Positions 2,306-37,100 of a stretch of 64,000 bases of DNA are shown in pieces; the first letter of the stretch is position 1, and every line of letters begins with the position of its first letter. Location of the stretch: contig CDROCS010000275.1 of the NCBI GenBank assembly GCA_977020255.1, positions 248,001-312,000 of the forward strand. Reading direction: 5' to 3'. Source of the stretch: Obrimoposthia wandeli. Its lineage: Eukaryota. Both the position numbers and the translations under genes were made by a program. The notes beneath the pieces were generated by a model. The model saw only the letters and a program-made list of their open reading frames with translations, did no database searches and was not told where the DNA came from.

Positions 2306-3243
2306 ATAACTTGAGTTACCCCAGAGAAGTTCCTGAAATTCGGAACCGGACGATCATAGGAATCATGCTGATCATACAAATCACTACGACCGAGGCTGGT
2401 TATGAGATCATGATCAGTAAATGGAGACAAGATACGATACGTGTGTTATACATAGAAATCCCTCTACTAAAAACAAATTACGTAGTAGACATTCATCTAC
2501 AAACATCAGCAACCGAAAATGTCGATCAGAAATTGTATGTCATTCGCCAGATCAAAATAAAGATTGACCAACATAAACTTTACTACCGACTGATATTATT
2601 CTACCATGAAAAGGTATTATACCTACGAATAACAATATCAAAAAGGAAACGGATTATTCAAATTATCCGAACAAAGTCATTAATATTGCCTAACGACGAG
2701 CGCATCTGGAAAGTTGTCGACAGGATTATGATCACAGGAAGACGACGTAAAACCGTATGGAATTCCGTTAGAATATTCTTCAGATTGTTAGAAACTGACC
2801 AGGTAACAGTGGCGTGTCCCAATCCAGATGGTGGAATCAGATTCGAAATTCAAAACCAAATGTTAGTACCACATTTTGATACGGAATGTCTATGTAACCG
2901 AATTTCCGGCAATGCTAAAGAGACCACTACCATAATCATGGTAATAACAGGTGAAATATTCTATATAACTCTAAGATACCAGATACGTCGATTTCGTGGA
3001 CTCGGTATAAGTATCAAACCCAGGAAAATCATTCCCGGAAAACCAATCATAGTCATAAAAAAGGAAAAGGTGAAAGGAAGTAAACGCCATTCCAAAAAAC
3101 CAATCATAGTCAAAAAGAAGGCAAAGGTAAACGGAAGACAACGCCATTCCGAGAAGCCAAAAGTAGTCATAACAAAGGCAGAAGTGAAAGGAAAAGAGCT
3201 CGATCCCAGAAACAAAGTACAATTATTGAGAGGACAAGAGTGA
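2302..3243 (+). CDS. Unknown protein with N-terminal hydrophobic segment and basic C-terminal repeats
   Basis: 313-aa ORF; ATGA overlap with previous stop (2302-2305); three ~19-aa Lys-rich repeats. Confidence 0.55.
   Translation: MNNLSYPREVPEIRNRTIIGIMLIIQITTTEAGYEIMISKWRQDTIRVLYIEIPLLKTNYVVDIHLQTSATENVDQKLYVIRQIKIKIDQHKLYYRLILFYHEKVLYLRITISKRKRIIQIIRTKSLILPNDERIWKVVDRIMITGRRRKTVWNSVRIFFRLLETDQVTVACPNPDGGIRFEIQNQMLVPHFDTECLCNRISGNAKETTTIIMVITGEIFYITLRYQIRRFRGLGISIKPRKIIPGKPIIVIKKEKVKGSKRHSKKPIIVKKKAKVNGRQRHSEKPKVVITKAEVKGKELDPRNKVQLLRGQE
3040..3195 (+). repeat. 57-nt coding tandem repeat, about 3 copies (KPIIVxKKxKVxGxxRHS)
   Basis: aaaccaatcatagtca...cgccattcc repeated with a 57-nt period. 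Confidence 0.8.
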
Positions 3244-8703: not shown

Positions 8704-8769
8704 TGGTGAGGCAGAAATATAGAGGCGTCTATTAGTAACCGGCGAATCTGAAAATATATTCTAAAAAGA

Positions 8770-9362
8770 TAAAGATATTTTGGTAAAGTAATCAGTCTTT
8801 GCGTATAAAGATAAAGGAATTTGATATTTTGATAAAGAAATCAGTTTTGCGTATAAAGAAAATGGAATTTGATATTTTGATAAAATAATCAGTTTTGCGT
8901 ATAAAGATAAAGGAATTTGATATTTTGATAAAATAATCAGTTTTGCGTATAAAGATAAAGGAATTTGATATTTTGATAAAGTAATCAGTTTTTGCATATA
9001 AATATAAAAGAATTTGATATTTTGATAAAGTAATCAGTTTTTGCATATAAAGATAAAGAAATTTGATATTTTGATAAAGAAATCAGTTTTGCGTATAAAG
9101 AAAAATGAATTTGATATTTTGATAAAGTAATCAGTTTTGCGTATAAAGAAAAAGGAATTTGATATTTTGATAAAGTAATCAGTTTTGCGTATAAAGAAAA
9201 AGGAATTTGATATTTTGATAAAGTAATCAGTTTGGCGTATAAAGAAAAAGGAATTTGATATTTTGATAAGTAATCAGTTTTTGCGTATAAAGATAAAGGA
9301 ATTTGATATTTTGATAAAATAATCAGTTTTTGAGTATAAAGATAAAGGAATTTGATATTTTA
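8770..9362. repeat. 48-bp tandem repeat, about 12 copies
   Basis: Unit gcgtataaagataaaggaatttgatattttgataaagtaatcagtttt (47-49 bp). Confidence 0.95.
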
Positions 9363-9556
9363 CGAAAAAAGAATATTTGAATTAAACATTGAATTTGAAA
9401 TATACCCATATATTAATTGGATATTTTGCGTTGGGAGAATATTGAATTAGACATCGAATTTGAAATAAACCCATATATATTAATTTGATTTTGTGCGTAA
9501 AAAGAATATTTGATTTGGACATTTTTGAATTCGGAGTAAACCCATAATTGTCCATA

Positions 9557-11654: not shown

Positions 11655-12991
11655 AGTAGGTAGAAGGATGGAGTCTAGATCACTTGACCCCCCCTGTGTG
11701 CGCACACCAAGTTAAAGGGTGGTGTGCGCACACCAAGTTAAAGGGTTTCACACCATAAGGGTGTCTTGCCACACCATAAGGGTATATGTTGCCTCACCAT
11801 AAGGGTGTCTTGCCACATCATAAGGGTCTGGCTCAGAAAGGTTATGAAGGTTTGAAGGTATGGTCGTGACGGTCTATGGTCGGCCAACATACCCAAGGGG
11901 TTGTGGTCGTCCATAGGTCAAAGGGTCGGGGTCAGTTTTGACTTGAAGGTTTGAAGGTATGGTCGTGACCGCCTATGGTCGGTCAACATACCCAAGGGGT
12001 TGTGGTCGTCCATAAATCAAAGGGTCGGACTCAGTTTTGACTTGAAACTTTGAAGGTATAATTAAGGTCAACTATGGTCGGCCGTCACATCTAAAGGGTT
12101 GTGGTTGTCCATAGGTCAAAGGGTCAAGGTCAGTTTTGACTTGAAACTTTGAAGGTATAATTAAGGTCAACTATGGTTGGTCATCACATCTAAAGAGTTG
12201 TGGTCGTCCATAAATCAAATGGTCGGACTAAAAAAAAAAAAAAAAAAAATATCAAGGTTTTAGTACATGGTTGTAATCATCTTTAGAAGACGAAGTCACT
12301 CATAAAGTATTGTCGGTCATATATGAATGGGTCGGGATATAGACCAAATCAAGTTTTAAATGTCAAAGTTTGAATACATGGTTGTAATCATCTTTAGAAG
12401 ACGAATTCATCCATATAGGTATGGTCGTCCATAGATGAAGGGTTAAAAAAAACTTGGAATTTCATAGTTTCAAGTACATGGTTGTATTCGTCAACATATT
12501 ACGAGTTTATTCATGTAAAAATTTTATGGTCGTTCACAAGTTAAGGGTTAGATTTGGCATAAATTAAGAAATTATATAGTATTCAATCAATTATTCTATG
12601 TGAAAGTTCACTCTTAAAAGTTAAGGAATGTATTACGTAATCATACACACACTATTCTATGTGAAAATTTAAGCTAAAGTTCACTCTTATCAGTTAAGGA
12701 ATGTATTACGTAATCATACACACACTATTCTATGTGAAAATTTAGATCAAAGTTTTTTCCTAGGCTTACACATCTAAAGAAATATGGTAAAAATTATTTA
12801 AATAACATAAATTATATATTAAAATAAAATATCCTTAATAAATATATTTATATACAATTTACATAATCAATACATAGAGAAAAACATTTCAAATAAGCAC
12901 AATGTTTTCCGTGTTTTCTAAACGGACATCGAATAATTTTGGCATTTTCTTTAAATTTTTGAAACTTTTATTATAATTCACAATTCTCAAA
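11655..12991 (+). repeat. Left TIR of the Polinton (~1.3 kb, internally repetitive)
   Basis: Reverse complement of 23884-25157, apart from differences in repeat copy number. Confidence 0.9.
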
Positions 12992-13038
12992 ATAAATAAG
13001 AAAGAAGTCAGAGAATAATACAAAATTAAACACATTTA

Positions 13039-16000
13039 TTATGTAATTTCATAATGTCCATAAGCGCGGCTTCTATTTTTCTCGTTCCAATAGCGTTTGT
13101 CATCTGATGAGCTGAGAGCAGTCTTTTGTGTTATGATTGTGTATAGTTGATGATTTATTGTTCCAAACTTCTTTTGTGGTATAGTATATGCATTACCGTT
13201 TTCATACACGTCTAAATATGTTTGATGTACAACCGTTGATCCCTTAAGATTTACTCCTTTTGCTTTATTATTTTCAAAGTCATCTTCAAACTTAAGTGAA
13301 TAACATTTACAAAGTAAGAAAATCCATTCTTTATACATTCTTCCTTCCGATTCATCTTTAAATAAACCTATTTTACTATTAAATTTATTAGAATATAATG
13401 GATCATTCACATTATAATTTGACGTATCTAATAATCCATCTGCAATCATTTTTGGTAACAACTGTTTTCTTAAATTAACGTTTTTACATTCCAAAAAGAA
13501 TGAGTCGTTATCACCGGCAACTATATTAATTGAACAATTGAATAAATTACGATATATTTGCAAATCATGATACTGAAGAGTATACATTCGTAATTTGCTA
13601 AGGTCTAGTACAGCTTGGCCTATATAATTTGGTCGATCGAGACAAATAAAGTCTTTTCTTAATAAAACAGCTATTAAATTATCATGAATTTCAATTGTTC
13701 GTTGAAACATAGGTTTGCTAGTATATGTAATTAATTTTGTAGAACTAGTGCAGATGCGAAGATTCAACCGTTTCTTAACATTTTCAACGGTCTTTCCATA
13801 CAAACTAACATTTTTAAGTTTATAAAAATCTTTGTCACATTTATTCGTTGCTTGTGATCTCATTTCTGAATTATATTCTATATATTCTGCGAATATCTTA
13901 GCCTGAGAGAATTTTACTGCTCGAAGAATAATTGTTACCACTGCTCCTAAACTAACATACATCTGCAATAGTCTCCAATGAATAACATAATGACTTTTTG
14001 GCGAATGCGTCATTAAAAGTTTTTCAACTTTTTTACCAGGTGGACATTTCTTTTCTGGAGCTATAGGAAGATCATCTAAAAAGTCATGAAGGTTTTCTGG
14101 TATTACCAAGTCTACTTCCATAACATAATCATATTCAATATGTTCCATGTTCACATTTTTCATTTCATGCAATATTTCGTTTAATTTTATATCATCAAGA
14201 ATCCATTCAAAATCTCCTTTTGGTAAAGGTTGATCAAGAGCCCATCCATATAAATTATTAACATCTATATATAAAAGACTTGTTTCTTCATCAGCGACTA
14301 CATGATGCTTATTGACAAATGTCATTCCTCCTCGTATACCCGAAGAAATCATGTTGTACATTTCAGGATCCTGCATCAGTTCAACCTTATGTTTTAACAT
14401 TTTTAGAGCACTTGCCCAACTCAACCCAGGAATGCTAAAAAGGTTAAGTGGTTCTAAACCATCTTCACTGAGAGCTTTTCTTCTGAATGTTTGAAACACG
14501 TCAGCTAATAAATATATGTCAGTCTTTAAGTAAACTAACATATAATCCAACATATTTCTACAATTGGTTATTTTCCAAACATCTTGTGCTTTTTGATATT
14601 CAGTGTCTGTGATTTTATCATTCCATTTTACTGGTAAACTTAACTTATTCTGGAGGACATTTAATGATGTAGCAAAATCATATGGGAATATTCCTTTGCC
14701 ATCAATAAGTTTAGATGGAAAAACTGATCTTGTTAATGGAATAGTTGGTAATTTACCGGCTAAATTTTCCAAAGATGATTGCAAAAATTGCAAAGAATCT
14801 ATAAATCTCAGAGTTATTTTACCTAATCTTACAATCATGGCTTGAAACTTTTCTGTTGATTGTGGTATAATATTTATATCCCAGTCAGTAAATTTATTCA
14901 ATGCATGTTTTAAAATATGATGTAAATCATAACCTCTGAGATTATGAAACACAATAGGTAAAGTTGGACGAAGTTTTCTTGATAAATTACATTCATTGCA
15001 TGCAGGACCTAGATACTTGCCAGTAAAGTGATCATGATCTTTAACATATTTTTCAGATGATTCGTGACATAAATAACATTCATCGGCATTGCTAAATGTA
15101 TGAATCTCTGCATTTGTTAAGGGAATCATTACGTTTTTAAGAGCATCTAAATACCATGGCAAAACCTTTTCTTTAGCCAAGTTCTCTATTGACTGAAGAA
15201 ATTTAACTATGCAGTCATCACCAACATTATGTTGATACTGCGTTTCAATTTCATCTGTACTCATAAATAACATACCAGATGCGACAGGCATATGCTTTTG
15301 ATGATAACTCTCATCTGGTACTAATACAGATTCAAAATCAGCGTAAACGACATATTTCGGTGATATAGTTTTTGACCAATCGTTGAATTTTAACGTACTT
15401 ATTCTTAGGCATAGTATACATTGTAGTGCTTTCTTGATTATAGTCACATAAAACTTTATGCTTTTCTAATGACAAATCGGTTTTGAAACCATGTAAACAC
15501 TTTTCACACCATTTTCTACTAATTCTAGTCGTTCCAGTTCGAATATTTAATAACCGGTTAAGACAACTTATTCCTATATAATGAAACCGTTCCTTGGATT
15601 CTAGTAACAATAAATTAACTCTAGTTCCTTCCTTCATTTTTGATTTGTATGCAACATCGATATAAGGATTCTTGATAACATCAGTTTTTGATTCTTTTTC
15701 ACTTACCTCATTGAATATGAATACATTTATTATTATACCAGGGTTTTGCCTTTCAAATTTTGATATATTTGATATTTTCATTGGCATGTCTTCAGTATTA
15801 TATACAAAATCATTTAAAAATCTTTCATAGTTACTTGGTCTATTTCTATTTATTTCTATTTCATTATATTTAAGTATTGATAATATTGCATAAATAAAGC
15901 AAAGATTATCAGAGTTTTGAATATTTATGACTGCTTTAGATTTTGTAAGAGAATTTGGTGATTTAATATATGAATGACCTGACAATGCACAAATTTGACT

Positions 16001-16705
16001 ATATTTAGTAACAATAAATGCATATTCAAGTATATTCATCAATTTCCAACCACTACCTTTTTCTGAATATTCTTCAACTTTATTTTCCATTGTATCTTCC
16101 AATTCTGAAATTATAGCATGTGAAAAAATCATTGCTCGATGCGAAGCATACCATTCTTTAGTTTCTCCATCATTCTTTTCAAACCTCATTCTAATGATGT
16201 ATTGTATCTTTGCATTTCCCATTAATTGCACTATTCTTTCTAGTTCGTTTAATAATGAAACTGGAACCTTAAGACTTACAAGATTGAGATGATCTACTTT
16301 CATGGATATCATTGAATAACTATTTTCTAACGATGTTTTAGTCTGTATATTGTCATTTATTTTACGTTTTCGTGACGGAGTAGGAGCTGAAATTACTATG
16401 TTTGATGATTCATTAATTATATCAGTTCTTTTGCTTAAAGCCGGTACTTTAAATAATGTTTTCTTACTACCATTTTTATATTCTTTTAAATGACTAACAT
16501 GTCGACTATAAAATAAGTTGTAATCAACATTTTCAGTGCTTAAACATTGTGGACATATGAAATAATTTATCTTTTTGTATGAATAACCATAATAATTTTT
16601 CATGATATCATGACAGACTTGAGGATTAAAATGTGTTTCCAATGAACAATAATTTGAATAAGTTTTACATATACTCATCTGATGATATGATTGGTATTGA
16701 GACAT
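13039..16705 (-). pseudogene. polB: Protein-primed family B DNA polymerase, split by a +1 frameshift near 15380
   Basis: ORFs 15338-16780 and 13039-15447 join as MPKNKYVK|FNDWSKT if one A of an AAAA run is removed. Motifs: DNLCF...HY (vOTU-like terminal-protein region), YADFES, CYLC..DHDH..CNECN, FHNLRGYD, YIDVNNLYG, KLKNVSLYGK, GDNDS. Confidence 0.95.
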
Positions 16706-16758
16706 TGATTGATTTGATTGAACTTGAGATATTGATTGATTTGTATACTGAATAAAAA

Positions 16759-16777
16759 ATATATATATATATAAATA
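16759..16777. promoter_or_regulatory. (AT)n-TATAAATA tract in the short divergent polB / TBP-like intergenic region
   Basis: atatatatatatataaata between ATG 16705 (minus) and ATG 16803 (plus); function inferred. Confidence 0.4.
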
Positions 16778-16802
16778 CAATAATTTAATTATTTTACTTA
16801 CA

Positions 16803-17357
16803 ATGTTAACAAATATTAATTATGAAGGAATTTGCTTAGATGATGTATCCAAATTAAAATTTCGAACACGACCAGAACAATACGTTTATAAAGCCAAAGA
16901 TTATACAATACTTATTTTTAGAAATAAGAAATGCAGGATTATGGGATGTAAGGTACCTATTAAAAATATTTCTTACCCTTTAAGAATAAATATACTTGGT
17001 ATTCAATCAATTACGGTATGTGAAAATTTAGATCAAAGTATCAATCTATTTAAATTATGGAATGTGTTACGTAATACATGTTCATTTGACCCTGAGGTTT
17101 TCCCAGGCTTAAGATTAAATATTTTCAATCCATTGTGTGTAAATATTTTCACATCTGGAAAGGTCGTAATTTTAGGTCTTAGAAATTTAGATTTTCAAAA
17201 TCAAGTTAACGATATCATGACATACATTAAAAAAAATTATATAAATACGAAACAATTTCTAATTAAATCATTCAATTTTAAATGTCTTATAAAGCCGTTC
17301 AAAAGTATTACGAGTATGATATGTTCTTCTTGGCATCTGCATGGATTCATCCAATGA
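16803..17357 (+). CDS. TATA-binding protein (TBP)-like protein
   Basis: Two TBP repeats: TILIFRNKKCRIMGCK resembles TALIFSSGKMVCTGAK; IQSITVCENL...SFDPEVFPGL..VNIFTSGKVVILGLR resembles IQNMVGSCDV...SYEPELFPGL..LLIFVSGKVVLTGAK. Confidence 0.85.
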   Translation: MLTNINYEGICLDDVSKLKFRTRPEQYVYKAKDYTILIFRNKKCRIMGCKVPIKNISYPLRINILGIQSITVCENLDQSINLFKLWNVLRNTCSFDPEVFPGLRLNIFNPLCVNIFTSGKVVILGLRNLDFQNQVNDIMTYIKKNYINTKQFLIKSFNFKCLIKPFKSITSMICSSWHLHGFIQ

Positions 17358-17668
17358 CTATGCCAGTGACATTATCGAAAACTTCGTACAATTACCGAGT
17401 CTCTGATTTTGACGACAAAGACATTCAACAATTCAATGAAGTCGTCAAATATTTGAAAATTGACATTGAACTTGAGAATGAGGGTATATTTATGCGCGGA
17501 GATAAGTGCAAATTTTATGATTGTTCCGGAACAAAGATTTCGGATATTCAAGAAGATGGAAGAAGTTGGATGCTCGAAATAAAAATTCTCGGATATAAAA
17601 TAAATAAAAAGAATGAAACAACTCTCATCTGGAGGATTCATACAGCGGCCGAATATTTTGATGATTAA
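17282..17668 (+). CDS. Hypothetical protein, possibly OB-fold ssDNA-binding (start 17282 or 17354)
   Basis: Beta-rich 128-aa ORF ending IWRIH...EYFDD (acidic tail); ATGA overlap with the TBP-like stop at 17354-17357. The function is inference. Confidence 0.4.
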   Translation: MSYKAVQKYYEYDMFFLASAWIHPMTMPVTLSKTSYNYRVSDFDDKDIQQFNEVVKYLKIDIELENEGIFMRGDKCKFYDCSGTKISDIQEDGRSWMLEIKILGYKINKKNETTLIWRIHTAAEYFDD

Positions 17669-17749
17669 TAAATATTTAATAAAATGTTGTTATTGTTATA
17701 AACATGTACTTATTCTGATATATTTATTTTATATTAATATTTATATATA

Positions 17750-18368
17750 ATGTTATTAACAAACAATTCGACTTTTCAAGTAGTAGGACCAAGTGGTAGT
17801 GGAAAAACTTTATTTGTTTGTAAATTATTAAATTCAAAAATGTTTAAAAATAAATTTAATAAAATATATTGGCATCAAGGTGGTGACGGAGAAGCTGGTT
17901 TAACAAACCAAGAATTTAATAAAATAAAAAACATTAAGATTATTAACGGTTTTGATGAAAATTGGACGACAAGACTTGTAAAAGGTGATGTAATTGTTAT
18001 TGATGACTTATATCAAGAGGCTAACAAAGAATCTGATTTTAATGATTTATTTACAAAAATTGCAAGACATAGAGAAGTTACTGTAATTTTTATAACCCAA
18101 AATTTATTTCAATCATCGTACTCGTAATCTTAATGTACATTATTTGATTTTATTCAAAAATCCTAGAGATCAAACAGTGATAGATTTTATTACTCGTCAA
18201 GCATTTCCTCATAACAAGAGTTATTTAATTGATGCGTTTCATGATGCTACATCTTTACCTCATGGTTATTTATTTTTAAATTTTACTCAATCATGTCCTG
18301 ATGATTTAAGAATTGTTACTGATATATTTAACCGTAATGGTATTACAGTCTATAAACAAAATAAATAA
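17750..18368 (+). pseudogene. A32/FtsK-like genome packaging ATPase, frameshifted near 18112
   Basis: Walker A GPSGSGKT, Walker B VIVIDDL, RHREVTVIFITQNLF; continues in another frame as HRTRNLNVHYLILFKNPRD. Confidence 0.92.
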
Positions 18369-18388
18369 TAATAATGTTTTAAAATAAA

Positions 18389-18799
18389 ATGAATTTTAAA
18401 AAGAGTATTCTTAAACATAGTAAAAGGACAGATAAAGATGAAGTTAAAAAATTAATAAACACTGTATTATATGATCGTAATAATATTGAATTTTCAAAAA
18501 GTTTACCTTATTTTTAAACCTTAATTGACGTATCAAAAACGAATAAAATGAAAATGTTGAAATCATTTCCAATTTATGTAGTTGATGATTTAATAAAAAT
18601 TTTAAATAAAATAATTTATGGTAAAATTAAACCTGATCCTAATATTTTAAAATATAAAAATTCATTAATAAATTTAGCAAATTCACGTGGTAAAATTAAT
18701 AAAAGAAACATTATTTACAATCAAAATGGCGGATTCCTATTGGCCATACTGCCCGCTATAGCATCAGTAATAGCTGGTCTTATAACTTCAAGAAGTTAG
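18389..18799 (+). pseudogene. Basic core protein ending in an adenovirus pX-like GG|FL motif; in-frame TAA at 18515-18517
   Basis: ATG 18389 is in frame with ORF 18548-18799; C-terminus NQNGGFLLAILPAIASVIAGL. Confidence 0.7.
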
Positions 18800-18822
18800 A
18801 AGTTTAAAAAAAAATTATAAAA

Positions 18823-19130
18823 TTATATAAGAGTCTTACAAAGTAACATTAATAAGAAACTTACATTAAATGTTGAAGTAGATTCTCCCGATGTACCAGG
18901 AACCATTGTTGTTGATGCTGATGTAGAAATCATTACCGCGGCTGCTAGTCTAAAAACAATATTAAAATTAATTTAAAAAAGAAAAAAAAATACTTTTTAT
19001 GTTTCTTACTCTGCATATGAGCATCCATTGAATATTTATTATTCATTGGTCCTGTTTGACATATTTGGCAATTAAATCTAAATATAAATCATAATTAAAA
19101 AAAATATATATAATAAACTCACGTATTCAT
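18823..19130 (-). CDS. Spliced micro-gene encoding a U1/zf-met-type C2H2 zinc finger; not in the ORF track
   Basis: Exons 19130-19123, 19077-18994 and 18949-18823; GT-AG introns of 45 and 44 nt restore MNTFNCQICQTGPMNNKYSMDAHMQSKKHKKLAAAV... Confidence 0.7.
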
Positions 19131-19456
19131 TTTGAGTCTTGATTTATTTAAATTAAAGAAAATAACAAAATAGTAAATTATATTTAATTTAACATTTCAA
19201 TTTATAATAGATATCCTATTATGTAATTTCAATTATTGATAATAATATAATTATCTCAATTGCTACAATTGAATTGTGCCTATTTAATTAAGATAGTTGC
19301 CTTAATAACGAAAATTATAATAATATTAAATAATTACATTCTTTCGTTTTATACAAACATATAAACAGATTAAAATATATTTAACTTTTATAATAATGGG
19401 GATAAACAATACAAAGTTGTCTAACTTATTTATAAATTTTAATTCTTCATGCTGCA

Positions 19457-20482
19457 ATGGAAAAGATTTGGAACAATCCAGAAGATCCAGACGGGTATAC
19501 AGGGTTAGAAAAATTGACAAACAGAGTCAAACAATCAAAAACAAACACACAAAAATGGTTAAGAAATGAATTATCATATAGTTTGAATAAACCTTTAAGA
19601 CGTAAATTTCCTACTAGATCATATAAAACTAATGGTATTAATTCCTTATGGCAGATGGATTTAATGGAAATGATACCTTATTCTTCAGTAAATAACGGAT
19701 TCAAGTATATTTTAACTTGTATTGATGTATTTAGTCGTTTTGCAAGGGCAGTTGGTATTAAATCAAAATCGGGTATTGATTTATTACATGCAATAGAATC
19801 TTTAATTGTTGATGATGTACCAGTAAATATCCAAACCGATGAAGGTAAAGAATTTTTTAATTCACATGTTAAGAAATTATTTAAAACTGAAAATATCAAT
19901 CATTATTCAGTATATTCTCAATATAAAGCTGCAGTAGTTGAAAGATTTAATAGAACGTTAAGAGAACGGTTAAAGAAATATTTTACTAAACAAGGTAATA
20001 AGAAATGGGTGAATGTATTACCAAACATTATTTATGCTTATAATAATTCTAAACATAGAGGTTTAGATGGTTTAAAACCTGTAGATGTAAATAATAAAAA
20101 TGCATTTGAAATTTGGTTGAAACAAAATCCAAAAGAAAAGAAAGTTAAATCTAAATATAAAATTGATGATTATGTTCGAATATCAAAAATAAGTTCAAGT
20201 CCATTTATTAAAAATTTTAATCAAAATTGGAGTGATGAGGTTTTTCAAATTCATGATATTAATTATAAACAAAATCCAATAATGTATATTTTAAAAGATA
20301 TTGATAACGTCATCATCAAAGGAAAATTTTATAAACAAGAGTTACAATTAATTGATAAACCTAAACTATATCGAATACAAGAAATTTTAAAAACTAAAGG
20401 TCGTGGTAAGAATAAACAATATTACGTAAAGTGGCACGGATACTCTGAACCTTCTTGGATATTTGCTTCTCAAATTGAATAA
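19457..20482 (+). CDS. Retroviral-type DDE integrase with C-terminal chromodomain (intact ORF)
   Basis: WQMDL, IQTDEGKEF, AVVERFNRTL; C-terminal YYVKWHGYSEPSWI. Confidence 0.97.
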   Translation: MEKIWNNPEDPDGYTGLEKLTNRVKQSKTNTQKWLRNELSYSLNKPLRRKFPTRSYKTNGINSLWQMDLMEMIPYSSVNNGFKYILTCIDVFSRFARAVGIKSKSGIDLLHAIESLIVDDVPVNIQTDEGKEFFNSHVKKLFKTENINHYSVYSQYKAAVVERFNRTLRERLKKYFTKQGNKKWVNVLPNIIYAYNNSKHRGLDGLKPVDVNNKNAFEIWLKQNPKEKKVKSKYKIDDYVRISKISSSPFIKNFNQNWSDEVFQIHDINYKQNPIMYILKDIDNVIIKGKFYKQELQLIDKPKLYRIQEILKTKGRGKNKQYYVKWHGYSEPSWIFASQIE

Positions 20483-21494
20483 TGTCAAAATATATCATTT
20501 TACCTAGTTATAGTTGTCCAAGTACTCAACCTAACAATACAGCCAATCAATTTACTGTAGATTGGGAAAACTCTCTAAATTTAGATGGTGAATGGGAGGT
20601 TGCCTTGACTGAATTTGTATTTAATTATACTCCTTTAACAATACAAACTAATTCAAAAATACTTTATAAAACAGAAAAGATAGAAATGAAAACTTTCGAT
20701 GTATCTTTTGCAATTTTAAATGGATTAATTTTTAATAATTTAAATAATGTTTTCAATTTCAAAATTACAAAGGATCAAAAATTAGAAATAAGTACAATTA
20801 ACAGTATTCCTCGAATGTTGTTAAAATTCGAATCTTTAGAAGAATCAAAAATTATAGGTTTTAATGAAATACAAAAAATTGCTAGTCATGTTATAACAAG
20901 TGATGAAATTGTTGACATAAATAAAAATATTCATGCTAAAATGAGAATTACAATTTATTCTTTAGCTGAATATGAATACGAAATAAAATTTAATCAAAGT
21001 TATTTGATACAAGATAGTTCTTCATTATGTAATATTATAGCCAGTAAATGTAATGCGATTTTTAAAAGCTGTAATATAGATTCAAACGGATTATTTGATA
21101 TTTTAATAAATATAAATGTAAAATCAGTTTTATTTGACGAAAAACTTGCATCTTTATTAGGTTTAAATAATGTTTTCTTTGAGAAACGAATTAAAGGTTT
21201 TCAAGAACCAACACTTTCTAGCTCATATAATCAAATGTATATTTATACTAGTTTAACAGATTCTGTCTTAGTAGGATCTGATTATGTTCCACTGTTAAAG
21301 TCTATTTGGTTAAAATCATTAAAATATCGATATGGAGATGTAGTAAATGTTAAAATTGATAATCCAATGTACTTGAAAATAAGAGATTCAAGTATTAATA
21401 GAATCGAGGTAAATATACGTGATGATTCTGGTAATTTAATTCCATTTTCATATGGAGCAAAACTAGTTTAACTCTTCATTTACGTAAAGTATAA
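20482..21494 (+). pseudogene. Minor capsid protein (penton); terminal 1-nt frameshift near 21460
   Basis: NNTANQFTV...DGEWEVALTEF; MYIYTS...VPLLK; IEVNIRDDSG; the natural end TLHLRKV* is in a shifted frame. Confidence 0.85.
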
Positions 21495-21530
21495 ACAATA
21501 TAAATATATTTAAAATATAAAAATATAAAA

Positions 21531-21932
21531 ATGAATACATCAATTATAAAATTTTACAGCAAAAGTCAACAGGGCGGTGAACTTCCCTATTTCATTGGTA
21601 AGCAATATGGATCTGGTTGGTTTCAAACTATTTCTAGATTAGCTATTCCATTTATTAAAAAAGCTGGTTTATCAGCAGCTACAAGTGCTGCCAATGCAAT
21701 TGGCGAAACGGTAGGAACTGCGTTAACAAATCCAAAAAACTTAATTTCATCTCTCAAAGAAAATACAATCAAAGAAGTCAAAACTTTGATTCCAAAATTA
21801 AAAAATAATGCTGTTGAGAGTTTAAATAAAGTCGCAAATTGTGTTGAACAAAATGGAAAGGGTCTTAAACGTAAAAGAAATCATTTAAATAGTATAAACA
21901 AACGTCTTAAAGGTACTATATTCCAAAAATGA
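21531..21932 (+). CDS. Polinton small virion protein (pVI-like, amphipathic) with QxGG/QxGxG motifs
   Basis: QQGG, QYGSGWFQTISRLAIPFIKK and QNGKGLKRKR; lies between penton and MCP. Confidence 0.7.
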   Translation: MNTSIIKFYSKSQQGGELPYFIGKQYGSGWFQTISRLAIPFIKKAGLSAATSAANAIGETVGTALTNPKNLISSLKENTIKEVKTLIPKLKNNAVESLNKVANCVEQNGKGLKRKRNHLNSINKRLKGTIFQK

Positions 21933-23149
21933 CTAGTATAAAATCTGAATTGTGTATTTTCTATAGACCACTACCTCAAGTAGTGATTGAAAATTCAAGT
22001 TTTGAAGAAATATTTCCAATCAATTCAATTACTGGGGGAAATTTAAATGACATAGAATTTAATATTCATGCATCTGAATAAGATTATCTGGATTTGAATG
22101 ATACTTTGTTAAATATTAAATTAAAAGTTGTAAATGAAGATGGTACTGATTTAATGAAAGATAACGATGTAACTCCAGATAATTACATGTTTCAAACTTT
22201 GTTTAGAGATGTTATTCTAACACTTAATAATGTAAAGGTTGAAGGAGGAAATGGAACGTATACTCATAAGGCTATATTCGATACTCTTTTGAATTTTAGT
22301 AGTGATACCAAGTATACTAACCTTGAATGTTCCGGGTATGATGATGATGCAAAAAATCGTAAACAATGGATTAGTGAATCTAAAATATTTTCATTGTGTA
22401 ATTCAATTAGATTAGATTTCTTTGATCAACCAAAATATTTGATTCCAGGGATTAATGTTCATTTGAGATTTATGAGAAATCAGCATAATTTTTCGCTCTA
22501 TTCAGAAACTTCAAAACCAATTATTCAAATTCTAGATGCTAGATTGTATGTTAGAAGAGTAAAAGTTGATTCTTCAGTAATGATTGGACATCAGTTAGGT
22601 TTGCAAAGTCAGAATGCAGTTTACCCAATTAGAAAAACTCAGTTAGTAACATATTCAATTCCTCAGGGTTCTTTGGAACTTAATAAAGATCAAATATTCG
22701 GAGACTATCGTTTACCCAAGTTCATTTTGATTGCTTTCAAAGATACACCTCAGGGTGGTAAGGAATACAAAGTTAAATCTTCTACGTTCAATACATTTAA
22801 TGTTTCAACAATATCATTAGCTAGAAATACAGATTATCGAGAAACTTATAATCTAGATAATAACAATTTTTCATTAGCATATATGCAGTCAATTATTCGA
22901 AATATGAATATTTTAGATAAAAACTTGAATAATGGTATCAGATTTTCTGATTTTAAATCAAGAAGTTCGATTTTCACTTTTCTATTAGCACCAGATTTTG
23001 ATATAAACACTACTCAAGTGCCTAAAACTGGTAATTTAAGACTTGAAATTAGATTTAATTCTCCTTTGGTTGTTCCAACAAGTGTTTTGATTTACGGAAT
23101 ATTTGATTCCGAAATTCAGATTACGAAAAATAAAACTGTGATTGTATGA
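21929..23149 (+). pseudogene. Double jelly-roll major capsid protein with in-frame TAA at 22079-22081
   Basis: ATG 21929 MTSIKSELCIF...IEFNIHASE*DYLDLNDTLL is in frame with ORF 22094-23149; typical LRLEIRF..P C-terminus. Confidence 0.9.
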
Positions 23150-23522
23150 AGTAAGCTTATTGTATATTATATTCTTTATTTAAATTAGTACTTTAGAAAT
23201 TTATAAATCCGGAAAAATATTATTGAATAACAAATTTAATGGAGTATATTCATTGGATAAAATTCCATCATTAAAACCCGGAGGCTACATTATCAATACT
23301 CATACTTCAAATCTACCAGGCGAACATTGGATAGCAATATTCGTTGACAGATTCGAGATTCGAGTGTTTGATCCTTTTGGATTCTATTATCCTTCAAAGT
23401 TGGTGTCTACACTTGAAAAAGAAAACATTCCAGTCTACTATAATCGAGTTAAATTTCAGAATCCATTAACTAAAAACTGCAGACCTCTGAGTCTTTTATG
23501 GTTGAAACTTCAACACAAATAA
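23146..23522 (+). pseudogene. Adenain-family cysteine protease, N-terminus disrupted
   Basis: NTHTSNLPGEHWIA, VFDPFG, FQNPLTKNC (usual CG is CR here). Confidence 0.85.
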
Positions 23523-23574
23523 TTTTAAGTATAAACAAATATATCATTATAGTATTTCATTTTATTTTTTTCAA

Positions 23575-24028
23575 ATGGCTTTTTTTTGATTTAGAATGTT
23601 TTATTGATAATAATGGAGAATATATTCCAAAGGAATTATGTATAATGTATGTGAATGATATGACTTGTCCATTTCATTACGTGTTTAAAAATCAAATACT
23701 ATGGAGTAGTTTATCATTTACAGTTAAAAGAAAAAATCTATATTTGATAAATCATCATCATCAGTTATCCTGGTTTGAAGGTGAAAGCTCTGATATTCAT
23801 ATTGATGATGTTGAAACAATATTCTATGTTATGGATTCTATTGATGGAAAGAAAATTAATTTAGTGAAACGAATGTTTCCAAATTTGAGAATTGTGAATT
23901 ATAATAAAAGTTTCAAAAATTTAAAGAAAATGCCAAAAAATATTCGATGTCCGTTTAGAAAACACGGAAAACATTGTGCTTATTTGAAATGTTTTTCTCT
24001 ATGTATTGATTATGTAAATTGTATATAA
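23575..24028 (+). pseudogene. DnaQ/DEDD-like exonuclease-type accessory protein, probable +1 T frameshift after the start
   Basis: FFDLECF...PKEL and C-terminal CPFRKHGKHCAYLKC; removing one T of an 8-T run gives MAFFDLE from ATG 23575. Confidence 0.6.
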
Positions 24029-25157
24029 ATATATTTATTAAGGATATTTTATTTTAATATATAATTTATGTTATTTAAATAATTTTTACCATATTTCTTT
24101 AGATGTGTAAGCCTAGGAAAAAACTTTGATCTAAATTTTCACATAGAATAGTGTGTGTATGATTACGTAATACATTCCTTAACTGATAAGAGTGAACTTT
24201 AGCTTAAATTTTCACATAGAATAGTGTGTGTATGATTACGTAATACATTCCTTAACTTTTAAGAGTGAACTTTCACATAGAATAATTGATTGAATACTAT
24301 ATAATTTCTTAATTTATGCCAAATCTAACCCTTAACTTGTGAACGACCATAAAATTTTTACATGAATAAACTCGTAATATGTTGACGAATACAACCATGT
24401 ACTTGAAACTATGAAATTCCAACTTTTTTTTAACCCTTCATCTATGGACGACCATACCTATATGGATGAATTCGTCTTCTAAAGATGATTACAACCATGT
24501 ATTCAAACTTTGACATTTAAAACTTGATTTGGTCTATAGCTCGACCCTTTGATTTATGGACAGTCATACTTTATGGGTGACTTCGTCTTCTAAAGATGAT
24601 TACAACCATGTACTAAAACCTTGATATTTTAATTTTTTTTTTAGTCCTACCCTTTGACCTATGGACGACCACAACCCTTTAGATGTGATGACCAACCATA
24701 GTTGACCTTAATCATACCTTCAAAGTTTCAAGTCAAAACTGAGTCTGACCCTTTGATTTATGGACGACCACAACCCTTTAGATGTGACGGCCAACTATAG
24801 TTGACCTTAATTATACCTTCAAAGTTTCAAGTCAAAACTGACCTTGACCCTTTGAATTATGGACGACCATAGTGGTATACCAAAGAAGGGTGGAGACTAG
24901 ATCAATTGACCCTTCCGCCCTCCCCCCTTAAAACCTTCAAGTCAAAACTGACCTTGACCCTTTGACCTATGGACGACCACAACCCCTTGGGTATGTTGGT
25001 CGACCATAGACCGTCACGACCATACCTTCAAACCTTCATAACCTTTCTGAGCCAGACCCTTATGGTGTGGCAAGACACCCTTATGGTGTGACACCCTTTA
25101 ACTTGGTGTGCGCACACAGGGGGGTCAAGTGATCTAGACTCCATCCTTCTACCTACT
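23884..25157 (-). repeat. Right TIR of the Polinton
   Basis: Inverted copy of 11655-12991. Confidence 0.9.
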
Positions 25158-29339: not shown

Positions 29340-31106
29340 ACTTCGACTCCTACATTGGTGAGCCGGACAACAGAAGAACATGCCGAACGAAGAACAGCAT
29401 ATTGCTCACCATTTTGTCACCATTTTGGCCAGAAGATCCGAACTTTGGTCCAGATTGAAGCTAATTCCAAACAAGTGGAATCTCCTCATAGAAAACGAAA
29501 CACAGCATCCCGGGGTCGGGATATTATTATGCAGCCAACAGCTACAGATCCATACGAGAGTCTACATGCGGCTATGATCAAGCGAATGGCCCCATCCAAA
29601 TTCCAAAGACTGGAGCAGTTACTGAATATGGGTCCGATTGAAGATAGGAAGCTGACTCAATTGCTTAGGGACATGAAGCGACTTAGCGAACATAATAGTG
29701 TCAGAGATCTCCTACAAGAAATATTTATGTGGAATATTACAGCACAAGTATGAGAAATGTTAGTCACTCTTACTGACAAACCATTCGAAGATATCGCAGA
29801 ATTTGCAGATAGTATCACGGAGGCTTTGGAGACATCGACTCATCCGGTCTCAGAAATTTCAACATATTGCCAGAAGGACAGCTTCCAAGATCAGATAAAC
29901 GGGTTATCGAAGAAATTGAAAATGTACTCAAGCGTATTGATAATGGCTCTTCAAATCCAAGAAAAAATAGATGATATCATCGAGTCGTCTTATGTACGTC
30001 ACAAATTAATTAACAGGCCAACAACATTTAGTAGATACTGGTGCTGAATTCAGTGTTCTCCCAACAACAGCTCAATACCGTGTTTCTCCAAATACAGAAA
30101 ATCTGAAAGCAGCAAACAATACACCTATCAGAACGTTTGGTTGCCGTGAAATAAAGTTAAATATTGGCCTTCGACAATTGACTTCATAATTACAGACGTA
30201 TCTAGACCCATTCTTGGCGTAGATTTCTTCCGACATTTTGGGATACTAATTTATTTACCTAATTGACGATTAATCAATGCTGAAACATTTGTCAATGCGC
30301 CAATTTGAAATACATACGGTATCTCGTCGTTATTGGATATAGATGGTCTGAAGATGTTTATACAAAAATGCTAATTGAGTTTCCAAATCTTACGAATACT
30401 CAATTTCGTCAGACAAACTCAGGCATGAAATATTCCATCATAGCGAGACAGCATGAGTTCCCGTTTACTGCCGTCCAAGACGACTACCTATGGAGAAATT
30501 CACAGCCGCCAAAAATGAATTTGATTATATCTAAAGGCAGGAATAGTTCGATGTGCCAACAGTCCTTGGGGATCAGCTCTTCATATGGTTCCGAAATCTA
30601 TAAAACTCGCAGAATGGATACCATGTGGAGACTACCACGTTCTGAACCAAGCTACTACTCCCGATAGATATCCAATTCCTCATATTCAAGATTGCAACCA
30701 GAAGCTAGCCGGGATGAAATTTTTTCGAAAATTGATCTTATAGAATATCATCAAATTCCTATTGCTCCGAAGGATATTTCTAAAACGGCTATAACAACAT
30801 CATTTGGGATGTTCGAGTATTTGAGGATGCCATTTGAACTCCGAAACGCAGAACAAACATTTCAGAGACTGATGGATAAGGTTTGTCATGGGTTGGATTT
30901 TGTTTACGTCTATTTGGACAACATTTTGGTATTTAGTCAATCCGAGGAAGACCATGTCAATCATATTAAGAAGCTGTTTGGTCGACTCGACGATAATAGT
31001 CTGATAATAAACAAAGTAAAATGCGAATTTTGAAAAAAATCTATCACTTTTCCGGGACATCTTATCAATGCAACAGGGATTCTTCCGCCTACAGAGAGAA
31101 TACGTG
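29340..31106 (+). mobile_element. Degenerate Ty3/gypsy element, 5' part (gag, protease, RT)
   Basis: Gag SPFWPEDP / DPYESLHAAMIKR / RKLTQLLRDMKRL; protease LVDTGAEFSVLP; [25 protein letters not shown]. Confidence 0.9.
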
Positions 31107-34100
31107 AGTAGGTAGAAGGATGGAGTCTAGATCACTTGACCCCCCCTGTGTGCGCACACCAAGTTAAAGGGTGTCACACCATAGAAATGTCACACCATAA
31201 GGTGTCACACCATAAGGGTATATGTTGCCTCACCATAAGGGTATATGTTGCCTCACCATAGAAATGTCACACCATGAAGGTATATGTTGACTCACCATAA
31301 GGGTGTCTTGCCACACCATAAGGGTCTGGCTCAGAAAGGTTAAGATAGAGAGGGAGGGGGGAAGGGTCAATTGATCTAGTCTCCACCCTTCTTTGGTATA
31401 CCACTATGGTCGTCCATAATTCAAAGGGTCAAGGTCAGTTTTGACTTGAAGGTTTTAAGGTATGGTCATGACCGTCTTTGGTTGGCCATCACATCTAAAG
31501 GGTTGTGGTCGTCCATAAATCAAAGGGTCAAGGTCAGTTTTGACTTGAAGGTTTTAAGGTATGGTCATGACCGTCTATGGTTGGCCATCACATCTAAAGG
31601 GTTGTGGTCGTCCATAAATCAAAGGGTCTAGGTCAGTTTTGACTTGAAACTTTGAAGGTATAATTAAGGTCAACTATGGTTGACCATCACATCTAAAGGA
31701 TTGTGGTCGTCCATAGGTCAAAGGGTCGGACTAAAAAAAAAAAATTAACGAATTCATCCATATAGGTATGGTCGTCCATAGATGAAGGGTTAAAAAAAAT
31801 TGGAATTTCATAGTTTCAAGTACATGGTTGTATTTGTCAACATATTACGAGTTTAATCATGTAAAAATTTTATGGTCGTTCACAAGTTAAGGGTCAGATT
31901 TGGAACAAACATGATAATTTTATTACATGGCGGTATTTGCATATGAAAATTGACTTCAAAGATACCCTTAAGGTCATGCAAACTTTAAGAGGTCCTTGTA
32001 AAAAATAAAAATACTTGTAATTTTCTAAAATAAAAATATTTTTTAAATTTAAATTTGTGCCAAATTATTTTGTTAGATTTTGTAAAGTTAAACAAATTTA
32101 ATTTATAGAATTTTTTAAAATATTAAAGTAACATTATTTAAAATAAATATTAGGGAAAATGTTAATAAACTCAAATTACTTTACTAACAGTATTATTATT
32201 ATTATTATTATTTTTTCATAAATATTTAAATTTACGCAAATTTTTATCCATTTTATTAATGTAATTAAACAATTCCTGGTCCTGGTGAAAAATAAAAAAT
32301 ACTTGTAATTTTCTAAAATAAAAATATTTTTAAATTTAAATTTGTGCCAAATTATTTTGTTAGATTTTGGTAAAGTTAAACAAATTTTAATTTAAGGGAT
32401 TTTTTAAGATATTAAAGTAACATTAATTAAAATAAATATTAAGAAAAAATGTTAATAAACTCAAATTACTTTACTAACAGTATTATTATTATTATTATTA
32501 TTATTTTTTTTTTTTCATAAATATTTAAATTTACGCAAATTTTTATCCATTTTATTAATGTAATTAAACAATTCTTTGCGGAAAAATTACTTGTAATTTT
32601 GTTTTTTCTTCAAAATAATAATAATTTAAATTTGCGCCAATTTAATTTATTAGATATTATTAAAGTTAAACAAATTTTAATTTAACAAGTTTTTTAATAT
32701 TAAAGTACCAACACATCTATCAATCAATTATTCTATGTGAAAGTTCACTCTTATCAGTTAAGGAATGTATTACGTAATCACACACACACTATCCTATGTG
32801 AAAATTTAGTACAAAGTTTTTCCCAGGCTTATGCATCTAAAGAATTATGGTAAAATTTCTTTAAATAACTTAAATTTCATGTCATACATACTTTGGAGTC
32901 CTGGAGAAAAATACTTGTAATTTTCTAAAATAATTTTATTTTTTTTTTAATTTAAATTTGTGCCAAATTTTTTATCGTTTCTTTGATTTAATTAAACAAA
33001 TTTGATTTTAAACATAATGTTAATTATAAAATAATTAATAATTTGATAAAAATTCATCTTACCACAAGTTATTCATCGAATCCATTGATGTATGTCCGTC
33101 AGCCTAATAGCATTATTCCATAATCTAACTGTAACTTTAGAAAAAAAAATAACAAATTTATTATATTAAAATTTAAAAATTGCGCGTTTTTTATTGTTTA
33201 CAATTAATGTATTAAAATAATGACGAAAATAGTTTCAAATACAAAGCAATTCATATTAATTATAACTAATTTATTAAAATAAACAAATTTACAAGTACTA
33301 TTTGATATTTTTAAAATATAAATAATTTATTTAAAAAAAAAGAATACTTCAAGTTCAAGTTAAATTTTGATAAATTCTAACATATTATTTTTAAATTACC
33401 GCCATTTATATATTATCCCTTTTGATGTATTTAAACAAATGTATATACAAACCTAATTATTATAACTCTAAGTTAAATATCTTAAATATTTATTAATTTT
33501 AAAATTGCATTATTTTATGATTGTAATTTATACCTAAAATAATGATGAATTTATTAAAAATATAATAATTACAAAGCAAATTAAAAAAAATTAAAAAAAA
33601 AATATATATATATATATATAAAGTAAAATCATTTGCTATTATTAATTTGTAATTTTCAAATTAATACTAGCAACCAATGAATAACATTAATAATATGTTT
33701 ACATTATATTAATTAATATGTAAATTTTCATGTGTGTGTTTTCTCTCACATAACTTTCACATGTTATAATGATCAATTAACACTCACATAAATAATTAAA
33801 ACATCCTTATAACATTCCTTAATTGATTTTTATTTAAACTGATAAAATTAACTTAATGTTATTCAAAGCTTACTAATTAAATAAATGTTTATTTAAATAA
33901 TTTGAGTATTAACATTATTCGATTTACACTATAAATATTCGAAAATATCTTTAACACATTAAAAAATAACTTCAATTTTTAAAATTTGTATCGAATATTG
34001 AAAATTCATTTGAAAACACATGTTTTTCGTCTATAAATTCGAATATAAAATCTTTAATTATATTGTTTTATATGTAAATAAATTAAAATATGTACATATT

Positions 34101-37100
34101 CGATTATGAATTAAGACTAATTGTATGAATTAATACAAGTGTAAATGTAAATAAAGGCAATTACAATTAACAATGAATGCAGTTACAAGTACAAGTAAGA
34201 AAGAATACGAATACAATTATGAATGAATATGAATGTAAAAACAAATGTACAAGTACATGAATGAATATTAGTAAAAATATCAATGCATTTGAGTTATAGT
34301 TTGAATAAAGGAGAGTTAGATTGAAAGTGAATGAATACAAGTATACATTCAAGTGAATGCAAATACGAGTAAGAGTTTCAGCAAGTAAATATAAAACTAT
34401 GAATGAGTGACAGTATAAGTGATTGAAAATAAGAGTGTCGATAGTTTGATTGAATGCGAGTGTAATTTATACTATAAGTAAATTAAAATAGAGTTTTCGT
34501 ATGAATAAAGTTATGTTAAGTTACAGTTAGATTAATAACAAGTAAGCAACTATAGGAAGCAGTGATATTGAAGTATGTTAAAAATTAGAACCACTAAGTT
34601 ATGGCAAGATTAATAAAAAACAACACCAAGTTTGAAGGTATGAATGAAAATTAGTAAAATATTTATGTATTTGAATGTAATTGAAAGATAGTTTGAATAA
34701 ATTACATTTAGATTGAATGTAAATGAATGCAAGTATGATTGAATGCTGTTACAAGTACAAGTAAGAAAGAATACGACTGCAAGTACGAATGTCAATTATG
34801 AATGAAAATTAGTAAATATATTAATGAATTTGAATAATTAAAATGTCTTATCTCGTTTGATAAAATTCCTTAATTGAAATATTTTAAAATAATTAGTTTA
34901 ATTTAAATTCTTTATTTTTAAATAACTCGATTATACAATTATATTCGTAAATATAATTGAAATTATCATTATTCGTTTCTCTTTTTAACTATTCGAAAAT
35001 ATATTTATATACAAATTTAGTAAATTAACTCAACAAACAATTTTATTTTTTAATTACTTGATATTTTTGCCATTGTCTTATTAATATAATATGAATATTC
35101 AATTTATTTCTTCAAAAATTCATTTTATATGTTAAATAATATTTTTTTACCACATTATTGTGGTTTTTATCAAGTGTTTTTATTTTTAAACTATAAAAAT
35201 ATTTTAATTATAAAGTTAGTAGCTGTATTCCGCCCACTGCATATAACATAAATTTCAAATATAAAGTACTATTAAATGTATTCTTTCAAATAGTAAATGT
35301 TTTTTCGAGTTATTTAATTTTGTTTACTAGACATTCGAAAATTGACTTGTAAACATAATATTATTTTGCATATATTCACTTTAATATGTTGTAAGTTATT
35401 ACTTTAATATAATCTACAACAAAAAACTTCAAATAATTTAATATTATGATTATTAAGTAAACTACTTGAAGTTTTTATATCAAATGATTTTACTTTATAT
35501 ATATATATATTTTTAATTTGCTTTGTAATTATTATATTTTTAATATATTCATCATTATTTTAGGCATAAATTACAATCATAAAATAATGCAATTTTAAAA
35601 TTAATAAATATTTAAGATATTTAACTTAGAGTTATAATAATTAGGTTTGTATATACATTTGTTTAAATACATCAAAAGGAATAATATAAAAATGGCGGTA
35701 ATTTAAAAATAATATGTTAAAATTTATCATTTTACAGACTTTTATTAAAATCTAAAGGGTTTAAAGCATAAATTGTAACAACAACAAAAGTACAAGTGAG
35801 TTAATATCTTGTAATATTCTATAATTTTTAACATTTGTATTTTAGTAGTTATTAATTGAACTTGAAGTATTCTTTTTTAAATAAATTATTTAAATTTTAA
35901 AAATATCAAATAGTACTTGTTAATATGAATTGCTTTGTATTTGAAACTATTTTCGTCATTGTTTTAATACATTAATTGTAAACAATAAAAAACGCGCAAT
36001 TTTTAAATTTTAATATAATAAATTTGTTATTTTTTTTTTCTAAAGTTACAGTTAGATTATGGAATAATGCTATTAGGCTGACGGACATACATCAATGGAT
36101 TCGATGAATAACTTGTGGTAAGATGAATTTTTATCAAATTATTAATTATTTTATAATTAACATTATGTTTAAAATCAAATTTGTTTAATTAAATCAAAGA
36201 AACGATAAAAAATTTGGCACAAATTTAAATTTTAAAAATATTTTTATTTTAGAAAATTACAAGGATTTTTCTCCAGGACTCCAAAGTATGTATGACATGA
36301 AATTTAAGTTATTTAAAGAAATTTTACCATAATTCTTTAGATGCATAAGCCTGGGAAAAATTTTGTACTAAATTTTCACGTAGAATAGTGTGTGTATTAT
36401 TACGTAATACATTCCTTAACTGATAAGAGTGAACTTTCACATAGAATAATTGATTGATAGATGTGTTGGTACTTTAATATTAAAAAACTTGTTAAATTAA
36501 AATTTGTTTAACTTTATTAATTTCTAACAAATTAAATTGGCGCAAATTTAAATTATTATTTTGAAGAAAACAAATTTACAAGTAATTTTTCCACCAGGAA
36601 TTGTTTAATTACATAAATAAAATGGATAAAAATTAGCGTAAATTTAAATATTTATGAAAAAATAATAATAATACTGTTAGTAAAGTAATTTGAGTTTATT
36701 AACATTTTTTCTTAATATTTATTTTAAATAATGTTACTTTAATATTTAAAAAAAAAAATGATATAAATTAAATTTGTTTAACTTTACCAAAATCTAACAA
36801 AATAATTTGGCACAAATTTAAATTTAAAAAAAATTTATTTTATTTTAAAAAAATTTTCAAGTATTTTTATTTTTTCACCAGGACCTCTTAAAGTATGAAT
36901 AACCTTAAGGGTATATTTGATCTAAATTTTCACATAGAATAGTATGTGTGTTAAAAACCACATTCCTTAACTGATAAGAGTGAACTTTAGCCTTGATTTT
37001 CACATAGAATAGTGTGTGTGTGATTACGTAACACATTCCTTAACTGATAATAGTGAACTTTCATATAGAATAATTGATTGAATACTATATAATTTTTTAA

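Follow-up and report, generated by a model that had tools for sequence, protein, structure and literature searches.

A small spliced gene for a single U1-type zinc finger predicted in Polinton elements of Obrimoposthia wandeli

A Polinton/Maverick element of Obrimoposthia wandeli carries a small multi-exon gene that, judged from its sequence, is very probably real and coding, and whose predicted product bears a single U1/matrin-type C2H2 zinc finger. The gene lies in a 64,000-nt stretch of contig CDROCS010000275.1 (positions 248,001 to 312,000; hereafter the window, whose own numbering is used throughout), and related fingers adjoin other Polinton cores in this genome, at 114 distinct loci that fall into nine clusters, here termed lineages. 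The predicted exons, the class of the finger, purifying selection, a conserved splice donor and, in six lineages each, a TATA box and a second, helical motif argue, together with the number of lineages, for an old accessory gene borne by the element and not for a chance arrangement. Its product may act as an adaptor between RNA and a host protein.

The host element (11655..25157, no strand assigned; 13,503 nt) has long inverted ends flanked on both sides by the same 6 bases, as a 6-bp target duplication, and encodes an integrase and a packaging ATPase whose Pfam matches (rve, 40 bits; Pox_A32, 25 bits) both exceed the cut-offs. The integrase gene (19436..20482, plus strand), whose chromo match falls below the cut-off, is divergent from the finger gene. 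A small core ORF (18518..18799, plus strand), which lies tail-to-tail with the finger gene, has counterparts in other lineages at 33-43% identity and is presumably PZ/pX-like. Among the other ORFs, Pfam returned only Endonuclease_7 for the long ORF and nothing for the capsid candidate; ORF size and order are fitting, and gene order and motifs are our basis for naming polymerase, capsid, protease and exonuclease among them. In the window copy (13039-16819, 17738-18368, 22082-23149) the polymerase is broken across two overlapping frames, as is the ATPase, and the frame of the capsid candidate begins without Met; decay and assembly error are both possible. A TBP-like protein (16752-17357, plus strand; Pfam TBP 46.1 bits, cut-off 22.9) has counterparts in related lineages that are about 38-51% identical to it. 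In the available text of PMC8502044 one figure legend, on protist MELD viruses, includes a TBP label, and a literature search combining Polinton/Maverick with TATA-binding protein returned one unrelated review.

The genome of 1.35 Gb contains at least 635 candidate copies of the element region, of which 40 were scored. Elsewhere in the window, a derivative made of element ends (about 31100-37860) has nested inverted arms at 32603-33602 and 35495-36574 and is a possible source of hairpin RNA; its relation to the finger gene is one of co-occurrence only. The left end of another element copy lies at about 62680-64000. Further features are a dual-specificity phosphatase ORF, two unassigned ORFs (348 and 316 codons) and an ORF for an amino-acid permease (48-881, 1259-3243, 58958-59704), and a 48-nt tandem repeat with about 11 overlapping matches across a 124-codon frame (8716-9425).

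The finger gene and all of its parts are on the minus strand. Its predicted exons, 19130-19123, 19077-18994 and 18949-18823, join in frame to give 219 nt, that is 72 residues and a stop codon; this three-exon join had been proposed by a sequence-only reading of the window, with which every coordinate and the 72-residue translation agree letter for letter. Exon 1 (19123..19130, 8 nt) supplies the start codon, exon 2 (18994..19077, 84 nt) the entire finger, from its first Cys codon at 19070 to the end of its last His codon at 18999, and exon 3 (18823..18949, 127 nt) a Ser/Thr-rich linker and a tail up to the stop codon. Both predicted introns are GT-AG, with a G+C content of 0.11 in intron 1 (19078..19122, 45 nt) and 0.09 in intron 2 (18950..18993, 44 nt); the exons have 0.25 (exon 1), 0.27 (exon 2) and 0.41 (first 85 nt of exon 3). 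If intron 1 is disregarded, exon 2 offers no in-frame ATG ahead of the first Cys. The gene had been described as a hidden antisense gene inside the Polinton, and it does lie inside the element on the opposite strand. However, no plus-strand frame of at least 30 codons with a Met overlaps it, so it is an opposite-strand intergenic gene and not an overlapping antisense one.

Two further sites could diversify the product. A 30-nt in-frame segment near the end of exon 3 (18835..18864, G+C 0.23) is either a third intron or the code for a hydrophobic tail with an LxxLL-type pattern, which in the window's lineage is present only if the segment is retained. The segment reads as the earlier account of an optional intron described it, and it may or may not be removed: it is shorter than the other introns measured here (33 nt and up), higher in G+C and constant in length, yet equipped with a perfect donor, and spliced and retained isoforms are both possible. 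In addition, a consensus-like cryptic donor within exon 2 (19004..19009) would, if used, remove the last His.

The structure is largely maintained within the window's own family. Eighty family loci were fetched, some of them twice, and 64 distinct ones passed a pattern demanding the finger residues, which excluded copies with altered Cys, His or Asn; 63 copies were thus compared with the window. Exon 1 measures 8 nt in 63/63 copies and begins with ATG in 60/63, exon 2 measures 84 nt in 61/63, and the stop codon is kept in 61/63. Intron 1 is between 43 and 101 nt long (donor kept in 60/63, acceptor in 56/63) and intron 2 between 41 and 47 nt (60/63 and 62/63, respectively). The 30-nt segment has its donor in 62 of the 63 copies, its acceptor in 56 and its exact length in 56, and the GT of the cryptic exon-2 donor occurs in all 63. 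Among the 29 closest copies, which were taken without the finger pattern, there were no indels in exons and 25 + 17 indel events in introns; since these length changes lie in homopolymer runs and may in part be assembly errors, the support that they lend to splicing is confounded. Distinct changes in exon 2 number 6 synonymous and 12 non-synonymous, and exon 3 gives no sign of selection (5 synonymous and 20 non-synonymous; 6 and 17 in the alternative frame), its changes favouring neither frame. At donor 2 the window has a weaker form than the one that predominates in the family (20/64 versus 37/64 copies). A gapped-pattern search for an intron-less, processed copy of junction 2, a weak test, gave no match. 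The sequence-only reading had named conservation of the Cys and His residues and of the GT-AG sites as one test of the gene, and these are conserved both within the family and across the diverged lineages.

The finger has the spacing C-x2-C-x13-H-x5-H in the window and x12 in the other lineages, in keeping with the U1/matrin definition (C-x2-C-xn-H-x5-H) as given in the available text of PMC6488673 and PMC9508840. Such a motif is unique among the six frames of the window and did not arise when the intergenic gap was shuffled 5000 times. The class assigned earlier is borne out by Pfam zf-met (PF12874; 23.7 bits, cut-off 21.2), while zf-C2H2_jaz (PF12171), the other family suggested for a search, is narrowly missed by the window finger (22.3 bits, cut-off 22.6); all nine aligned lineage fingers match both families at E up to 0.01, and all nine are net basic. 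In H-x5-H fingers, basic residues near the histidines are described as touching RNA duplexes without base specificity, and the same fingers are also described as protein contacts (available text of PMC6488673 and PMC9508840). A profile of the lineages gave 10 matches in the PDB, all weak (E 0.005-4.6), of which the nearest are single fingers of RNP machines (SF3A2/Prp11 and TUT1), followed by Spindle-E and ZMAT2; the window finger alone found no match there.

Relatives beyond these elements proved elusive. Against a profile of the eight other lineages the window finger scored 39.6 bits, compared with 21.8 for the best of 18 other fingers from the same genome. A tree of 27 fingers on 26 columns gave no resolution, the Polinton group requiring 2 changes, which is compatible with one origin as well as with more than one; no host parent gene was found among the same-genome fingers examined (50 fetched of 150 scored, from 1155 candidates). 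Protein searches found no clear relative outside this genome. The finger alignment, run in a search of 5.8 billion entries that covered longer proteins only, returned 35 candidates and none at E <=10; an Atlas search returned generic small C2H2 clusters only (0.91-0.92). A HMMER scan matched 152 proteins, and among the 150 listed, 149 had at least two matching stretches, the best single finger reached 36.0 bits, and the family signature Thr-x-x-Met-Asn-x-Tyr did not occur in these best 150 of 152. That protein libraries yield only generic multi-finger matches is to be expected of a gene missed by ORF callers.

The nine lineages emerged when the genome was searched with zf-met, 150 of 1155 candidates being scored, and in two follow-up searches. 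Neighbouring proteases, compared for five lineages, are 57-66% identical, apart from those of lineages D and G (88%), which are also sisters by finger. In all nine representatives the residues Cys, Cys, Thr, Asn, Tyr, His and His are invariant, several of them with synonymous codon changes. Mean pS among the representatives is 0.69 and mean pN 0.25, which indicates purifying selection, and identity by codon position is 0.73, 0.80 and 0.50; the loci were chosen by protein similarity and Cys/His pattern, which inflates conservation and lowers pN but leaves the synonymous spread as it is.

The splice sites predicted in the window have counterparts in these lineages. A GT exactly 3 nt (one codon) past the last His is in the majority in 6/8 other lineages and present at one or more loci in 8/8 (9/9, 9/12, 16/17, 1/3, 3/4, 1/1, 1/3 and 1/1), against a background of 0.04 per position; as the lineages share ancestry, a binomial figure for this conservation overstates it. 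In the window's lineage the donor lies 2 nt later, and its intron 2 corresponds to the post-finger intron of the others. Past short AT-rich introns of some 33-64 nt the reading frame resumes, and in four lineages the residues that follow are related. Introns of the host ZFR gene resemble those of the finger gene in size and style, spanning 38-74 nt with 3/5 at 38-40 nt; here 5/7 joints were called, and one top score (49 nt) outranked a more plausible 37-nt call. The piece of ZFR recovered is 73% identical to one protein and reaches at most 55% against the named matches of full coverage.

Upstream sequence and gene order add to this picture. A TATA box stands 33-55 nt before the start codon in six lineages (6/9, 9/12, 3/4, 3/3, 1/1 and 1/1 loci; controls 0-0.20). 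It is lacking from that interval in the window's lineage (1/60), D and G, all three of which carry a site resembling an acceptor directly upstream of the finger. The finger gene is tail-to-tail with the last core gene in lineages B (10/12), D (16/17) and G (3/3), and in C and G, the only lineages in which a search for an upstream terminus was clear, the common upstream sequence stops 777-1502 nt away from the finger, at a motif resembling a terminus; both observations place the gene inside the element. The gap that holds the finger gene in the window measures no more than about 60-160 nt in three other lineages, which suggests that the gene moved into its position in the window.

The downstream exons of six lineages contain a second module, Trp-Glu followed by hydrophobic residues at i+3, i+4 and i+7 with acidic flanks. 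This motif, a putative helix, occurs at 2/9 loci of lineage C, 16/17 of D, 1/4 of F, 1/3 of G, 2/3 of H and 1/1 of J, and in 6/2000 shuffles; it was found at 0/64 loci of the window's lineage, 0/12 of B and 0/1 of I (a locus cut short), and is absent from the six frames of the window element. In lineage D it is joined in frame to the finger in 4/5 walked copies. The procedure used to chain exons passed over the third donor of the window and was inconsistent in decayed copies, so only the lineage D chain is relied on: in-frame joining is demonstrated there at the level of predicted exons, and the motif exons of C, G, H and J are candidates. A second conserved motif of this kind points to a protein partner. 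In lineages H and J (L182, L183, L189) a run of short, Ser/Asn-rich exons lies between finger and helix, possibly through exon duplication.

As an explanation we tentatively place an adaptor mechanism, to which we would give somewhat less than an even chance, ahead of suppression of silencing, regulation of transcription, a leader for the polymerase and the absence of any gene. Under the adaptor mechanism the gene would be transcribed and spliced by the host in the cell; its U1-type finger would bind zinc, as its class suggests, and contact structured or duplex RNA, and the short helix, acidic and hydrophobic, would serve as the docking site for a host protein. Such an adaptor would probably help the element's own transcripts, its presumed target, to be processed or to survive. 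The window's lineage would then be a short relocated form, with three exons in the gap before the integrase and no motif exon. A single finger combined with a docking helix is more in line with an adaptor than with a dsRNA sponge, JAZ having four fingers, and the adaptor is favoured for this reason; the RNA-processing factor offered as an option by the sequence-only reading comes close to it. Against the adaptor, the cryptic exon-2 donor could truncate the finger, and the window's lineage has neither the TATA box nor the helix motif, the latter being missing from B and I as well.

The finger might instead suppress silencing, by coating dsRNA or small-RNA duplexes or by acting as a decoy of a host silencing finger, and so shield the element. 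We consider this unlikely, although the zf-C2H2_jaz matches of all nine aligned fingers, the binding of dsRNA by JAZ fingers without sequence preference (available text of PMC6488673), the at least 635 candidate element copies and the nested inverted arms of the derivative (about 32600-36570) are in its favour, as is the existence of anti-silencing proteins encoded by plant transposable elements (VANC; available text of PMC5735166). ZNF346/JAZ employs four fingers with avidity, however, and there is a single finger here; the window finger stays below the jaz cut-off, no JAZ, ZFR or Wig-1 structure is among the 10 PDB matches, and the helix motif suggests recruitment rather than mere coating. 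The weak match to Spindle-E (E 0.11) concerns the C-terminal finger of a protein present in the SIWI silencing complex 9NHS, but a role for that finger was not found in the parts of the literature examined, and mimicry of Spindle-E is a lead only. A counter-silencing reading, in which the spliced, TATA-driven gene stays expressed after integration of the element, its finger binds RNA duplexes of the element and its helix diverts a small-RNA or RNA-decay factor, is doubtful; if true, it would help explain the many hundreds of element copies in this genome. Equally, the finger could bind DNA or protein at element promoters with the acidic helix as an activation motif, and in the window's lineage the 30-nt splice could be an on/off switch for activation, by analogy with E1A; this reading, too, seems improbable to us. 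The helix does fit the acidic hydrophobic-x-x-hydrophobic-hydrophobic pattern of activation domains, the gene has its own TATA promoter, in most lineages its transcription would run inward from the end of the element, and the element also encodes a TBP-like protein. A single zinc finger, on the other hand, provides little DNA specificity. Moreover, the characterised H-x5-H fingers are mostly RNA-binding (available text of PMC6488673 and PMC9508840).

Two less probable readings concern the status of the exons themselves. They could also serve the DNA polymerase gene as a remote leader, joined to it by a splice that spans the core module on the opposite strand, in the manner of adenovirus E2B. 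The finger lies on the polymerase strand and upstream of that gene in the window and in copies that keep the order, the window's third donor is in phase 0, and a predicted 54-nt intron (16748..16801, minus strand) ends in a phase-0 acceptor before the N-terminal polymerase ORF, whose first ATG is at 16705. This ORF starts at an AT-run plus CAG in 20/20 window-family copies, and the acceptor falls on a codon boundary in 9/18 anchored lineage-D-like and 12/14 anchored lineage-B copies, most of the remainder having apparent frameshifts. In a different Polinton group, moreover, an ATG and a U1-type finger precede the N-terminal polymerase matches by 540-850 nt at 8/15 loci. Nevertheless, a long-range splice, although phase-compatible, is not needed and seems quite improbable: in every lineage a start codon and a donor, the latter 31-58 nt ahead of the acceptor, are available nearby, in 3/5 walked lineage-D copies the finger-gene chain can end close by, at a stop codon and with a poly(A)-like signal, all called host introns are shorter than 80 nt, and most exons are symmetric, which makes phase agreement weak evidence. 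That there is no gene at all, but a captured or decayed fragment with chance splice-like sites in AT-rich DNA, we regard as highly improbable. The lack of visible selection in exon 3, the weaker form of donor 2 in the window and the failure to find clear relatives outside this genome would suit such a fragment; the synonymous divergence at invariant residues speaks against it, as does the retention of donor position, TATA box and helix motif across lineages whose proteases, as far as compared, are 57-66% identical (88% in one sister pair).

Separately from the finger, a phase-0 acceptor with a short upstream intron is conserved in three lineages (L210-L269 and the window), and the polymerase gene, judging by these sites, may itself be spliced at its 5' end. 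In the different Polinton group (L081-L084, L088-L090, L094, L098) the N-terminal polymerase matches are closely preceded by an ORF that begins with ATG, has no intron and encodes two fingers, one of them of U1 type.

Annotation of Polintons relies on long open frames, and the core genes of these elements are said to lack introns. Exons of 8 to 120 nt escape such annotation, yet this multi-exon gene has been kept through deep divergence and relocation, which suggests that Polintons can have a regulatory layer missed by ORF-based maps. With its two conserved modules, the finger gene is a small, testable candidate for the activation of animal Polintons or their resistance to host silencing. A spliced single U1-type finger gene in Polintons was not found in the literature searched (which included few subscription papers and no supplements), and the available text of PMC6431247, PMC13269885 and PMC10748475 makes no mention of one; an earlier annotation may exist in element maps of the Repbase type or in supplementary tables of ORFs.

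Intron-bearing Maverick cargo, in contrast, is already known. According to the available text of bioRxiv 10.1101/2022.07.12.499685, nematode Mavericks carry the wasp proteases and krma kinases, which, like the finger gene with its predicted introns inside the element ends, are intron-bearing genes in Mavericks with intronless core genes. However, that cargo consists of large enzymes, encoded in a variable region, that have relatives among host genes and are exchanged between species, whereas the finger gene encodes roughly 60-130 residues with a single finger, is kept across diverged lineages, has no host parent among the fingers examined and changed position in one lineage. The accessory genes of adintoviruses (Oncoid, Adintoc, PLA2X and gasdermin-like; available text of PMC8502044) are likewise small and belong to animal Polintons, and the Oncoids combine zinc-binding CXXC pairs with short linear motifs; the same text mentions neither splicing nor a U1-type finger, and the finger gene lacks an LXCXE motif. 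Arabidopsis VANC is also an extra element-borne gene proposed to aid its element against the host, but, as far as the description in the available text of PMC5735166 goes, it belongs to another class of element, acts sequence-specifically on DNA methylation and has a tested function. With the host proteins SF3A2/Prp11, TUT1, TUT4, U1C, JAZ/ZNF346 and ZFR the finger shares the C-x2-C-xn-H-x5-H spacing, the basic residues around the histidines and the Pfam match. Host U1/matrin fingers sit in large proteins or multi-finger arrays, whereas the Polinton finger stands almost alone and has its own Thr-x-x-Met-Asn-x-Tyr signature.
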